From Escherichia coli (GTDB taxonomy: Bacteria > Pseudomonadota > Gammaproteobacteria > Enterobacterales > Enterobacteriaceae), in NCBI RefSeq assembly GCF_024223415.1, contig NZ_CP100500.1: DNA of 64,000 bases. One strand, written 5' to 3'. The stretch's first letter is position 1; the number at the start of each line of letters is the position of its first letter. The position numbers were made by a program. Positions 36,001-45,000 of this stretch are shown one piece after another.

Positions 36001-39000
36001 GCGCCTTTCAGCAGCTGCATTTATCAGGTGAAAACCACCGGGATGACGGATGCGTTGGTTATAGTCGGCGAACTCTGGCAGCACAGCTTCAATGTCGTTG
36101 CGAATGCGATCATAATCTTCCACCAGATACTCCCAGGCTACCACGCTCTGGGGTAGTGCTGCCTGCGCGATTCCCGCGACCACTGCACACTCTGATTTCA
36201 GCATTACACCGGCGGGTTTTAACACGCCACGCGAGGCATGAATCATCGACATTGAATCCTCAACGGTTACCGCCTGCGCACCGCTTTTTTGCATGTCAAT
36301 CTCGCTACGTCCCAGAACCGGCAGAATATAGCTATGCCGTGCGGTCAGCAGATGAGAGCGGTTAAGCTTAGTGGCTACGTGTACCGCCAGATCTAATTGC
36401 GTTAACGGTACAGCGCTCGCTTCCCGATCTGGCATTGCCAGTGCAAAGTTGCCCCCCATGCAGATCAATGCTCGAGCCTGCCCTGTACATATTGCTTGCA
36501 TGCTGGCAATTGCAGCATGTCCAGGTGCTTGAGGTGGTGTGAAGCCATAGCGCTCACCCAGGCGAGCCAGAAACTCTGCAGACGGTTTCTCGGTGATACC
36601 GACGGTTCGGTCGCCCTGTACATTAGAGTGGCCACGTAGTGGGCAGATACCCGCACCAGGCTTGCCAATGTTACCTTTCATCAACAGCAGATTGACCAGT
36701 TGCTGTACATTCTGGGTACCATGTTCGTGCTGAGTGATCCCCATTCCGTAACAGATAATGGTGCGTTCGGCAGCGGCATATGCATCAGCCAGTTCGGCGA
36801 TTTGTGTCTGACTTAGTCCAGAAATACGTTCGATATCTTTCCACTCGGAATTGAGAACGTCACGGCGTAGCTCGTCAAAGCCGACGGTATGCGTTTGAAT
36901 AAATTCGTCATCAAGCAATGAGGGCCGACCTGCGGCACTTGCAGCATCATCGCGCTCAATTAACAGGCGCATCATCCCCTTGAGCAACGCCATATCGCCA
37001 CCAATGCGCACGTTGTAGTAGGCACTGGCCAACTGAGTCTCAGAGTTCGTCAGCATTTCAAACGGGTTTTGCGGTGCGGTAAATCGCTCCAGGCCACGTT
37101 CCTGTAGAGGATTGATGGCGATCATTTTCGCTCCCCGTTTCACTAAAGCGCGCAACGAAGTCAGCATGCGAGGGTGGTTTGTACCAGGGTTATGCCCAAT
37201 GCAAATGACTAAATCGCACTTCTCAAAGTCTTCCAGCAACACGGTCCCTTTACCTACACCGATACTCGCTGCCAAACCCACGCTTGTCGGTTCATGGCAC
37301 ATGTTGGAGCAGTCGGGAAAGTTATTGCTCCCGTATTCACGGGCAAAAAGCTGATAAAGAAAGGCAGCTTCATTGGAAGTGCGGCCCGAAGTATAGAATT
37401 CAACCTGATTGGGATCACTATAGCTTTGAAGGCGTGCGCCAATTTCATCGAAAGCTTGTTGCCAGCTTAATGGCTTGTAACAGTCGCTGACGGCATCATA
37501 TTTCAAAGGCTGAGTGAGTCGCCCCGCAGCCTCAAGCTCGTGGTCTCCCCAGGTAAGTAATGATTGAACCGTATTCTCAGCAAAGAAAGAGGCGTTTACC
37601 TGCTTATCCGTGACTTCCCAGGCGATTGCTTTTGCGCCGTTTTCACAAATGTCGAATGACGCACTGTGCTTAGGATCTGGCCATGCACAACCCGGACAGT
37701 CAAAGCCCTATGGCTTATTCATGTCAAACATGGCAATAACATCCTGGCGTATATCCATCTGCTTACGTACTGCATTCGCTACGGATTTAACAGCACCCCA
37801 ACCACCGGCAGCTCCCTGGTAGGATTCAATTTTTTTCTTCATCTACTTATCCTGTGTGGAAATGAATTATTAGGATTTGTAATAGCGATGATGCACAGTA
37901 CATACAAAGGGATTATCGCCAACATGGATATATAAGAGTAGGGGACTACTCTCTTTCTATTTTTAATCTATTATCGTTAAACAATAGATTAAATACGATA
38001 AGGTAAGCATCATCTCTCATAGTGTTTAAATTAACATATTTTTTAATATAAAAAATAAGACTCTGGCTTCAATTGTGCGCGGATTTTCTTACAGGTGTAG
38101 GATAATAGCCTTCACAAAATAATTATCCGCGCAATTTTCGTGAATGGAGCGCATAGACCAATGTCAAAATCACAATTATTCATAGATAAAAGTGACACCA
38201 ATGACTGACTGGACGGTTCCGGCTGAAACTTTGTTTCCTGTTTGTCCATAGGTTGCGCTTAAACCCAGAGGTACTTTGCTTTTATTTACTGTCCCCAGGG
38301 AGATATTTTCTCCCGTAGCCAGTATTTTTCCATTACGCATCAGAGAGACACCCACTCCCGATGCTTTTGTTGCATCAGGTGCTGTGTTAGCAAACACTTG
38401 TCGGGCACTGTCAGTGGTGGCACCCGAAAGATAAAATGAGAGCTTTTGTTCGCTTGAGCAATATACGCCAAGGGGTATTTCTGCGCTTCCAGGAAAGTCC
38501 GGGAGATTCACGGTGACATTACGACTATCAACAGTGCAGCCGCCTGTTGGCATAACAACACTGTTATTTGAAATAATATTCCACGTAAAATTACGAGGAT
38601 TTCCGCTTCCTAACGTGGCAATTTTATACATATGAATACGGGCAATAGCTTCCCCGGCTTTTATGACAACTCCACCGGCCGCCCCGACTGGGGTAATATA
38701 GAGTTTTAACGGTAATGGCATCGGTGTCTTATCACCAATATCCAATACGTTGGTATTTGTCGTCAACGGGAAGGGGTAGGTCACACTATTCCAGTACAGC
38801 GATCCTTTATATGACTGTAGGGAGCCTGCGAAAGCTGAGCCTTGTACCAGGTTTATATGATCAGTATCGTACCAGCCGCCGTAATCATTCCAGCAACTTA
38901 TATGCTGAGACAAGTCTACAACCAGATTCTGTCCCGGTTGTATTACAGGGTCGAGATTAACATAAACAGAGGTTGTACCTGCTCCAATACTTGACCCGCC

Positions 39001-42000: not shown

Positions 42001-45000
42001 TTTGAGGCCACGAAAGTTCACACTATCAAAAATATCGCCATCGGTATAACTATCACCTACCGTTAACCGTGAGCGTAAGGGAATAATGTCACGTTCAGCC
42101 GACGTATTGATATGCTGCCATTTATTGCTGTCAGATGAATTGCTACTCCCACTGTTATAACTCCACGTTGAGTTATCGCGTAGTCGCCAACTACCAATGT
42201 TGATGCCACTCTGTAAATTCAAATATGCATAGTTTGATTTTCCTGCATTATGGTTACTACGATTATTAATAGAATTACCATTAAAACTATAGTTTAGAAG
42301 CCCTGCATTTATTCCTTCTTCCCACAGTTCAGGAGAAACATAGCCGCGAGCCATTCTGCCAACATAAATTTGCGGAACGGAGAGTGACAGATGTTGCTGA
42401 CCAACATCAAACTCAGTTGATGCGTCGACCAAACGATCCTGAAGTGGTGTGCATGCGCTGTTGTCCGGCACATGTTTTTCTGCTGAATGTTCCTTATTGT
42501 CTAATAACGCAGATTTTTTTATGCCAAGACTGACAAGAAGATCTGTACTCAGGCATGGGATGAGATCTGCATTATTATCATCTGCAATAAAAGTAATATC
42601 CCGACTAGTCATAAATTCGTCGTTCAAATAAATGTCGACCCGATATGTACCAGGTGGTGCCTCGCGTCCCTTAGTAAAGGCGGATAAATCGACAGATTCA
42701 GCAAGATCATTGCTTAAAAACCGTGGATTAAAATAATACTCTGCGTCAACGGGAAATACCGCAGTTGCTAAGCCAAGGGCAATGGTAAGCCGTACAAAGC
42801 GAGGCAGTAGTAACACCTGATGCAAACGATATGCCTTAAATGCGGCACGAAAGGCTGTCATTATTAATTCCGATTGAGTTTATTATTAATTAGGTCACTG
42901 GCTTACTGCATGGTTGCCTTAATACGCGGAGTTAATGCGCCGTAATCATTGATCGTCTGAAAACTGATATCCCCGGTGGCAGCATGCGGGATATCCACCG
43001 ATACTTCACCTTTTGGCGGCACCATGGTGTTTGGGAGATTGCTATTTCCTGCTTTCATATTTGTTACGGTAATGAAGTAGGGCGTTGGATTAATAAGAGT
43101 GAGTTTGCTACCGCTGCGACGAAACCGAAGCATTGCAGGCGCTTCTTCAGGTGCCATTGCCAGGTTCGTGGGGCGATAAAACATTTTTATGCGGCTAATA
43201 ATTGCCAGCTGTAATGTATTCTCATTCTTCTGGTCTTTTTCCATAGCAGGAATAGCTTTAACATTCACCCAGAACAGGCTTTCACGGTCGCCTGGTAACT
43301 GATGATTAGTGGCGTTGATTATCCGCAGCGTATTCTCTTTTTTACCTTGCATGGAAAAAAGCGGTGGGGTAATGACAAACTGGGTGTCTTTTTGGTCACC
43401 TGCATTTTCTATCCATGACTGAATGAGATAGACACTGGCAGGATCATTATTCGTGACAGGCAATAAAACCTGTTTCTGGTTTGCCGGATAAATTACCCGC
43501 GTCGCACCCAGTGCGACAGCTGCGTTGGCAACGGTGCTATGGCAAGCAAAGAGCAATAAAAGTAACACTGTCGCCATAAAGGAAATAGAGTAGGGGGTAC
43601 GCGTAGTTTGCATCTGATGCATTCTCCATGTGTTAAGAGGATAAGCGGGAAAACCGTTACATCAGACAATCGGTAAATGTTGCTAATACATTGGCGAGTC
43701 GCCGGGTTTCCAGACTTAATGCGTTTGTAATAAATGTTGGTTCTCTTTTAATAGGAAAACCTTGCTAAAAAGTAAATATTTTTAATAACAGTAAGTTTAA
43801 CTACTATTGTTTATTGATAGTTTAGATATTATGTGATTTTTCATAGCGCTCCAAATACAAACCACTCCTCATTAATAATGAGATTCACATTGGTGAATTG
43901 CTCGGGTGTGTGTAGCCATGCCACACACACCCTGTTTCAATTTCAGATGACGTATAGCCACCTTAAGATTGAATTATAGATATTGAACTTTGAAGGTCGC
44001 ATCTGCGTTTGCAGTACCAGCTACGGACTGCCCGAGTGCAATATAACGAGCCTGGAACGGCAGTATATTCGTGCCATCAATCAAGTCAGTTTTAGCGCTA
44101 AAAGTGGCACCATCAAGTATTAATACCTCACCCGTACGGTCCAAAATTTGGATACCGACATTTTGGGCAGAGCCTGCCGCTGAACTCTGCAGCGCTAACG
44201 TATCGTCATTACTGGTGACAGTAGTACCCAGGAATGCAACAGCTGCATTATTGGAAACATTGGTATCACAATCATTCAGCTTGATATTGAAGCCAACGGC
44301 GGAGCTGAGGTCACCCGCTTTAGCCAGGCGAGAAGAACGAACCTGACCCAGCTCAACCGTTTGGTTCATTGATTCGGAATCAATCGCACAAGCGGCATTT
44401 ACCACTTCACCTTTAAAATGAATAACACCGCCATTAACAGTGGTCGTTACTGATTCATCACCCTCGGCTGCGCTTACCGCAGCAGACGACATCGCCAACA
44501 CAGAAACGACAATCATACCAACATGTTTGAGTTTCATAATTCTCCAAAATTTATATTTAAGTAGCTGAATAAAGAGAGTTAACAATTAAGTCATTCTGTT
44601 ATTGCTTATAAAACAAGAATCATTCTTGATTGGTTGTTGCCCTGAGAATATAGTTTCCAGGGTTATTACATTTCACGAAGAACGATGATATCTTTAAATC
44701 ACAAGGACACCTAATCACAACAAGTTTATTGCTGCACTTGTTGAAGAGAGTATTTGCAAAAACATTTTATGTCGCTAAATAACATGACGATTTCATTATG
44801 CATGTTATTTATAAACCGTGACTAAACAGAATATTATTGCGAACAAGGGAAGTGTCAGGAAAGGTCAAGGGCTACTAATGGTTTATATGGCTATAAATCA
44901 TTAGCTATAGTTAATGTTTGCCTGATGTAACTAACACCGAATTGCTCTAAACAGATAAGTGCAGGGTTTATTAAAGCTGACCGACAGACTTTCTTAACCT

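Follow-up and report, generated by a model that had tools for sequence, protein, structure and literature searches.

An intact-looking F9 (Fml/Yde) chaperone-usher pilus operon in Escherichia coli, at the locus where K-12 retains a remnant

The window analysed here, a 64,000-nucleotide stretch of the Escherichia coli contig NZ_CP100500.1, almost certainly contains, in intact form, the chaperone-usher pilus operon known in E. coli as F9, Fml or Yde. Six co-oriented ORFs, all on the minus strand and free of internal stops, occupy positions 38176-44537 and encode, by ascending coordinate, the adhesin, two minor subunits, the usher, the chaperone and the major subunit. The Pfam domain sets are full across the six products, and global alignments of the six proteins to the F9 orthologues of E. 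coli O157:H7 give 98.7-99.6% identity; colinearity extends from end to end, and gaps and stops are absent. The six genes, including the usher and the adhesin, for which it had been suggested to look for hidden frameshifts, therefore contain none. The locus is flanked by ydeP and hipBA, which matches the published F9 locus (PMC3966885). An earlier note on this DNA had proposed six intact co-oriented genes, which is indeed what we find; the interval it gave for them (38176-44585) places the six ORFs correctly, but 44585 corresponds to an upstream TTG, and the likely start of the first gene is at 44537.

The finding is correct but ordinary, and it is already known. The six-gene operon, its ydeP and hipBA flanks and its disruption in K-12 were described by Wurpel et al. 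2014 (PMC3966885); the pF9 expression construct consists of the cloned genes c1931-c1936, and the same work reports fimbriae that are visible at 20 °C and a specificity for Gal-beta1-3-GlcNAc (PMC3966885). In the main body of Wurpel 2013 (PMC3559732), no text on F9 or Yde was found.

The major subunit gene, fmlA (43974-44537, minus strand), is absent from K-12. Its 187-aa product has a Fimbrial domain (Pfam, 6.5e-31), is identical to the O157:H7 protein at 186 of 187 positions and is 66% identical to FimA. The mechanically called ORF (43974-44585) begins at the TTG at 44585; the ATG at 44537 is the likely start, because a GGAG lies 7 nt upstream and because RefSeq places the start there in SCU-316, a near-identical strain. 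The periplasmic chaperone (42903-43613, minus strand; 236 aa), also absent from K-12, probably starts at 43613 rather than at 43622, as in the mechanical call (42903-43622). It comprises PapD_N (8e-40) and PapD_C (5e-12) and is 59% identical to FimC; in the FimC alignment, the arginine at mature FimC position 8 (GATRV) and the lysine of ISRIK are both conserved. In PapD-like chaperones, this Arg/Lys pair anchors the subunits. The outer-membrane usher (40210-42861, minus strand) is full-length, with 883 aa of which K-12 ydeT represents the C-terminal 408 codons. Its Pfam domains are covered end to end in one ORF (PapC_N 1-146 of 146, Usher 1-549 of 549, PapC_C 1-66 of 66), and it is identical to the O157:H7 usher at 876 of 883 positions and 57% identical to FimD.

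The two minor subunits are YdeS, a FimF-like adaptor (39666-40196, minus strand; 176 aa; Pfam Fimbrial, 6e-22), and YdeR, a FimG-like tip-fibrillum subunit (39150-39653, minus strand; 167 aa; Pfam Fimbrial). YdeS shares 98.9% of its residues with its O157:H7 orthologue and 45% with FimF, and its substitution Q143H is private to the strain among those compared; for YdeR, the identity is 98.8% with the orthologue in O157:H7 and 56% with FimG, whose N-terminal extension, DVTITVNG, it shares. Four proteins of the operon have the Fimbrial domain, and the subunits have the pilin cysteine pair and Fim-like N-terminal extensions that align to those of FimA, FimF and FimG.

The tip adhesin, FmlH or YdeQ (38176-39090, minus strand; 304 aa), consists of a signal peptide (residues 1-24), a lectin domain (residues 25-184) and a pilin domain, and its alignment with FimH chains spans the whole protein; its Pfam matches are FimH_man-bind (1-145 of 145, 7e-77) and Fimbrial. 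The lectin domain is identical at 158 of 160 positions to PDB 6AOW, the 'F9 pilus adhesin FmlH' of UTI89, which supports the earlier assignment of the operon to an F9/Fml-like family. Structures, ligands and a list of contact residues are available for FmlH (PMC5866590): the pocket residues F1, Y46, D53, K132, N140 and R142 are all kept in the window, as are the three binding loops. Compared to the UTI89 crystal sequence, O157:H7 and MG1655, the allele of the window carries N78S. A second change, V148A (mature V124A), is private to the strain among those compared and lies outside the three binding loops. Since its pocket is unaltered, this allele is expected to be recognised by galactoside inhibitors or vaccines directed against FmlH.

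There is practically no chance that the operon is instead a type 1 (Fim) operon, mannose-binding and phase-variable. It is true that PGAP labels fmlA 'type 1 fimbrial major subunit FimA' and the minor subunits of certain genomes fimF/fimG, that the best Pfam match of the adhesin is 'FimH, mannose binding', and that the gene order resembles that of fim, but the identity values and the locus context refute this assignment. The proteins of the window are only 45-66% identical to the Fim proteins of MG1655, the locus lies between ydeP and hipBA and not at fim, and it has neither a fimB/fimE recombinase gene nor fimI or any remnant of fimI. Moreover, the adhesin shares 99% of its residues with galactoside-binding FmlH and only about 48% with FimH, and the FmlH pocket residues K132, R142 and Y46 are present in it. 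A fimS-like invertible switch is also unlikely: the annotation of the neighbourhood contains no recombinase gene, and a 10-nt repeat pair (44879-44888 and 45430-45439, 541 nt apart) is no better than chance and leaves the promoter outside. The 'fimA / type 1' labels that RefSeq gives to this F9 locus are misleading.

Judging from orthology to the characterised F9 and Fim systems, the subunits would be exported by Sec, and the PapD-like chaperone would fold and cap them by donor-strand complementation and pass them to the usher. The latter would polymerise them by donor-strand exchange, FmlH at the tip being followed by YdeR, YdeS and then the rod of major subunits. The ligands of FmlH are predicted to be terminal galactosides (Gal-beta1-3-GalNAc or Gal-beta1-3-GlcNAc) and not mannose. 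As far as can be judged from the sequence, nothing argues against the operon being an intact F9 operon, and the strain could in principle make a complete F9/Fml pilus, unlike K-12. F9/Fml is a characterised adhesin system tied to chronic UTI, calf gut colonisation, low-temperature biofilm and plant binding; the interest of the present copy beyond its correct annotation is little.

The regulation of the operon had been considered unclear in the earlier note. We argue that it is not really so, since the control of F9 has been mapped in CFT073 and the promoter is conserved in the window. In CFT073, the transcription start was determined by 5'-RACE, the f9 promoter is bound by H-NS, and control by H-NS and by low temperature (20 °C) has been mapped (PMC3966885). 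When transferred to the window, this transcription start is a G at 44788, exactly 251 nt upstream of the fmlA ATG, which gives a 251-nt 5' leader (44538-44788, minus strand). The promoter (44795-44824, minus strand) has a -35 box TAGTCA (44824-44819), an 18-bp spacer and a -10 box CATAAT (44800-44795); compared to that of CFT073 (TAGTCG / CATAAT, 18 bp; PMC3966885), the -35 box differs by one base. The promoter and the transcription start are kept across the four lineages compared, the promoter is present in MG1655, and O157:H7 and ST131 have almost the same leader. A consensus promoter scan also detects the promoter, and we used the generic scan only to confirm this detection, promoter-like sites not being enriched (18 versus 18.9 expected in shuffles), nor terminator-like sites (6 versus 7.2). 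Behind ydeQ, the hairpin folds in 37900-38180 have modest z values of -1.45 and -2.7, and none makes a convincing intrinsic terminator. Transcription of the operon would begin 251 nt ahead of fmlA, at this conserved sigma-70 promoter, which in other strains is silenced by H-NS at 37 °C and active at about 20 °C.

Next to the operon lies yneL, an AraC-family remnant of the ECs2114 type (44971-45240, minus strand), rightly taken for a fragment in the earlier reading. All that is left of the AraC-type gene is its last approximately 89 codons, which encode the C-terminal HTH (Pfam HTH_18 only) and correspond to residues 216-304 of a relative of 304 aa (78 of 88 positions are identical to residues 216-303 of this AraC_N+HTH regulator, from strain C10), and RefSeq flags it as 'missing N-terminus'. 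The AraC-like remnant was nearly silent when tested in EHEC (PMC7766294). We propose that the gene is a dead remnant, which would not be needed for control by H-NS and temperature.

It could be that the operon looks intact and is nevertheless cryptic or non-functional, as a result of permanent silencing, of private substitutions or of the loss of an AraC activator, but we consider this improbable. At 37 °C, F9 is under H-NS repression, and in wild-type strains it is difficult to detect (PMC3966885), and yet the promoter, leader and ORFs are conserved here as in strains that express F9 at 20 °C with the same AraC remnant or none. The adjoining regulator is a remnant, but in ST131 it is wholly absent and the F9 operon is still present. 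As for the two private changes, FmlH V148A and YdeS Q143H, they are conservative and outside the FmlH binding loops. The same suspicion could be drawn from other lesions nearby in this strain, the nonsense codon of ydeP and the private autotransporter deletion.

A 360-nt A+T-rich spacer (43614-43973) separates fmlA from the chaperone gene. At the equivalent position, the fim operon carries fimI and the FimR2 sRNA. A search of the spacer for fimI or its remnant, by tblastn with FimI and other Fim proteins and by blastn against fimA-fimI-fimC, gave nothing above chance. The spacer contains a 13-bp G+C-rich hairpin (inverted repeat I2; 43904-43932, minus strand), 41 nt after the fmlA stop and with no T-run behind it. 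The 81-nt stretch of the hairpin folds with -35.6 kcal/mol (z = -5.8, none of 200 shuffles being as stable), and O157:H7 and ST131 both retain the hairpin, with a single change from U-A to U-G. Upstream of fmlA, a perfect 11-nt inverted repeat (44776-44786 and 44801-44811) brackets the -10 box and the transcription start. There is a small chance that these two conserved non-coding elements are functional and apparently undescribed in the literature, the hairpin as the mark of an sRNA or of a stable fmlA 3' end formed by processing, which would set the ratio of major subunit to assembly machinery, and the inverted repeat as the operator of a dimeric repressor that aids temperature control. If so, this repressor would add to the temperature control that is now credited to H-NS alone. 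The sole Rfam match in 37800-45600 (E<=1), AdoCbl-II, scores 21 bits for a gathering threshold of 36.5, lies on the wrong strand in fmlA, and was rejected as a chance match.

According to the earlier note, K-12 has a truncated ydeT and lacks the chaperone and major subunit genes. Alignment with MG1655 proves this right: window positions 41437-44716 (3280 bp) are missing from it. The junction, which is ambiguous by one C, was obtained by blastn of MG1655 1580000-1600000 against the window and from junction sequences. The loss takes in codons 1-475 of the usher, the genes of the chaperone and the major subunit, and 179 nt of the leader, while K-12 keeps the 408-codon C-terminal ydeT fragment as well as the f9 promoter with the 72 nt that open the leader. 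Since the promoter is spared, ydeT'SRQ may still be transcribed in K-12. At least 80% of the missing segment is found in 3537 of 5426 complete E. coli genomes (about 65%), and the exact K-12 junction in 1375 of them (25%), these counts being of DNA coverage and not of ORF integrity. F9 is disrupted in all phylogroup A genomes analysed by Wurpel et al. 2014 (PMC3966885). The internal 3280-bp deletion of K-12 is the derived state, common to about a quarter of sequenced E. coli, and intact F9 is the commoner one; since it is common and the contrast with K-12 is published, the intact operon is no distinguishing mark of the strain.

Three comparisons with known systems situate the operon. The first is with the F9 reference systems, namely c1931-c1936 of CFT073, ECs2113 (fmlA) and the neighbouring cluster of O157:H7 Sakai, and FmlH of UTI89 (PDB 6AOW): the six genes, their order, flanks, promoter and 251-nt leader are the same in the window, and only allelic detail differs. 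The AraC-like HTH remnant upstream corresponds to the 'EHEC Sakai type' organisation (PMC7766294). On the flanks, hipBA is intact in the window, whereas hipA is truncated in O157:H7; ydeP carries a nonsense codon, and an autotransporter deletion is private to the strain. The second comparison is with the orthologous locus of K-12 MG1655, ydeQRST (b1502-b1505), in which ydeQ, ydeR and ydeS, as well as the 408 codons that remain of the usher, show 97.7-99% identity to their counterparts in the window; because 3280 bp are missing, including the N-terminal half of the usher, the chaperone and the major subunit, K-12 cannot build the pilus on its own. Last, type 1 fimbriae (fimAICDFGH) are the closest paralogue of F9, both belonging to the gamma-1 clade (PMC7766294). 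The gene order is the same from the major subunit to the adhesin, and the subunits of F9 have Fim-like N-terminal extensions. However, the pocket of the adhesin of the window is predicted to be galactoside-specific, whereas FimH of type 1 fimbriae is mannose-specific, and F9 is controlled by H-NS and temperature, while fimB/fimE and the fimS-like switch belong to type 1.

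The interval 38176-44585 holds six consecutive minus-strand ORFs separated by short spacers, and the domain sets of all six products are complete in Pfam, which confirms the claim of the earlier note that six intact, co-oriented fimbrial genes are present. They encode an adhesin of 304 aa (38176-39090; FimH_man-bind, covered over 1-145 of 145 positions with E 7e-77, and Fimbrial), two small pilins (39150-39653 and 39666-40196; Fimbrial), an usher of 883 aa (40210-42861; PapC_N, Usher and PapC_C, each covered end to end), a chaperone (42903-43622; PapD_N and PapD_C) and the major pilin (43974-44585; Fimbrial). 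The 5' ends of the last two mechanical ORFs are slightly too long: in the RefSeq annotation of the near-identical strain SCU-316, the chaperone starts at the equivalent of 43613, and the major subunit at an ATG at 44537 with GGAG 7 nt upstream. Global alignments to the proteins of E. coli O157:H7 strain F8952 reveal no hidden frameshift; the six products are colinear, without gaps or stops, and the identities are, from the adhesin to the major subunit in gene order, 300/304, 165/167, 174/176, 876/883, 235/236 and 186/187.

RefSeq labels genes of this locus "fimA/fimF/fimG", which suggests type 1 fimbriae, but the proteins are only 45-66% identical to their Fim paralogues from MG1655. On the contrary, the lectin domain of the adhesin (residues 25-184) is identical at 158 of 160 positions to the proteins that PDB names "F9 pilus adhesin FmlH" (6AOW and its relatives), and full-length FimH chains match it much more poorly. 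Considering also the high identity to O157:H7, the operon is F9/Fml/Yde, as the earlier note had proposed, and not type 1. The residues that contact galactosides in the FmlH structures (F1, D53, K132, N140, Y46 and R142) and the loops 10-15, 44-53 and 132-142 (PMC5866590) are all kept; the lectin domain departs from the crystallised one only by N78S and V124A, both outside the binding loops. In the chaperone, the positions that align to the FimC Arg (GATRV) and Lys (ISRIK) are conserved, and the pilins keep their Cys pair and Fim-like N-terminal extensions, that of YdeR (DVTITVNG) being identical to FimG's. FmlH V148A (mature V124A; 38648) and YdeS Q143H (39768) are private among the strains compared, being absent from SCU-316, O157:H7 and MG1655.

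When MG1655 (1580000-1600000) is aligned to the window, homology extends from ydeM to 41436 and restarts at 44716. The junction sequences are those of a clean deletion, ambiguous by one base (C). The 3280 bp that MG1655 has lost comprise usher codons 1-475, the genes for the chaperone and the major subunit, and the 179 nt of the leader nearest to the ATG; the earlier note was therefore right that K-12 has a truncated ydeT and lacks the chaperone and major-subunit genes. In CFT073, the f9 transcript starts at a G that precedes the ATG by 251 nt, with a -10 CATAAT and a -35 TAGTCG separated by an 18-bp spacer (PMC3966885). Mapped onto the window, the start is G 44788, the -10 is at 44800-44795 and the -35 (TAGTCA) at 44824-44819, all of them upstream of where the deletion ends. 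In K-12, the promoter therefore persists with the initial 72 nt of leader sequence, joined to ydeT codon 476 (window 44717-44824; MG1655 approximately 1590079-1590190), so that its ydeT'-ydeS-ydeR-ydeQ genes lie directly behind the native H-NS-controlled promoter.

The neighbouring AraC-type gene, yneL, is indeed a fragment. HTH_18/HTH_AraC is the only Pfam match of the ORF at 44971-45225, which aligns (89% identity) only to residues 216-303 of WP_000622442.1, a full-length 304-aa AraC_N+HTH regulator of strain C10 (5002-5916 of locus L008); therefore, less than 30% of the gene is kept, and both the first helix-turn-helix and the N-terminal domain are missing. The C10 regulator sits in an integrase-associated argW/intS island at tRNA-Arg, which suggests that the ancestor of yneL belonged to a mobile gene family. 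The same remnant is the cryptic CDS ECs2114/Z2199 of EHEC Sakai, whose reporter is almost silent (PMC7766294). The earlier note took regulation to be unclear in view of this fragment, but it is not really so: H-NS represses F9 directly at 37 °C, with expression near 20 °C (PMC3966885), the sequences through which this control acts, promoter and leader, are conserved here, and ST131 has no AraC remnant at all, yet keeps the operon and its promoter. The promoter/leader region is A+T-rich (32% G+C vs 48% for the whole window). Judging from this conservation, the strain would be under the same H-NS and temperature control as the published ones. A second promoter-like sequence, GGTTTATA ... CATAATG, is found on the minus strand at 45408-45440, just downstream of hipA and upstream of the AraC remnant; its arrangement, TGGTTTATAT-N7-CATAATG, resembles the f9 core, CGGTTTATA-N11-CATAATG. 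It could be what is left of the lost regulator's promoter, or a chance occurrence.

In the f9 promoter, the -10 hexamer and the start site lie between the arms of a perfect 11-nt inverted repeat (44776-44786, TAAATAACATG; 44801-44811, CATGTTATTTA). O157:H7, ST131 and MG1655 share this repeat, and when the intergenic region is shuffled by dinucleotides, 4 of 300 shuffles reach its length; the repeat could be an operator or due to chance. Between fmlA and the chaperone gene lies a 360-nt A+T-rich spacer, where the fim operon has fimI and FimR2; no fimI remnant was found in it. At the start of the spacer, 41 nt after the fmlA stop codon, is a G+C-rich hairpin of 13 bp (43904-43932, minus strand). 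The 81-nt stretch folds with -35.6 kcal/mol (z = -5.8; none of 200 shuffles is as stable), and O157:H7 and ST131 have the same hairpin but for one U-A to U-G change. As it lacks a downstream T-run, it does not qualify as a canonical terminator. Other chaperone-usher operons suggest, by analogy, that it may stabilise the message of the major subunit or attenuate read-through; a 3'-derived RNA is a further possibility.

A comparison of 16.1 kb with SCU-316 shows six SNPs and three single-T indels in the window. In ydeP (35563-37842, minus strand), which encodes an oxidoreductase of acid resistance, codon 45 is a premature stop: the plus strand has A at 37710, unlike SCU-316 and MG1655, which have C (Glu45). 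The gene has probably become a pseudogene here, or is translated from TTG 37506 as a product of 647 aa. The autotransporter gene (yneO/ECSE_1600 family) upstream of hipBA lacks 3277 bp compared to MG1655 and SCU-316, with a clean junction at about 48300 (1-nt microhomology). Among 5426 complete E. coli genomes, none has the 301-bp junction intact; this deletion is thus either private to the strain or an assembly artefact.

In terms of DNA coverage, which does not check ORF integrity, 5353 of these 5426 genomes match part of the 6.4-kb stretch and 3644 have 80% or more of it at a single site; some of the segment deleted in K-12 is found in 3820, at least 80% of it in 3537, and the exact K-12 junction in 1375. 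The majority state is nevertheless the complete operon, the deletion seen in K-12 being a derived allele that is common; this fits the account of Wurpel et al. 2014. Both the observation and its interpretation were correct. Since Wurpel et al. 2014 (PMC3966885) described the operon of six genes between ydeP and hipBA, the finding had already been published: the locus is known at textbook level, and is seen here in its most common state.
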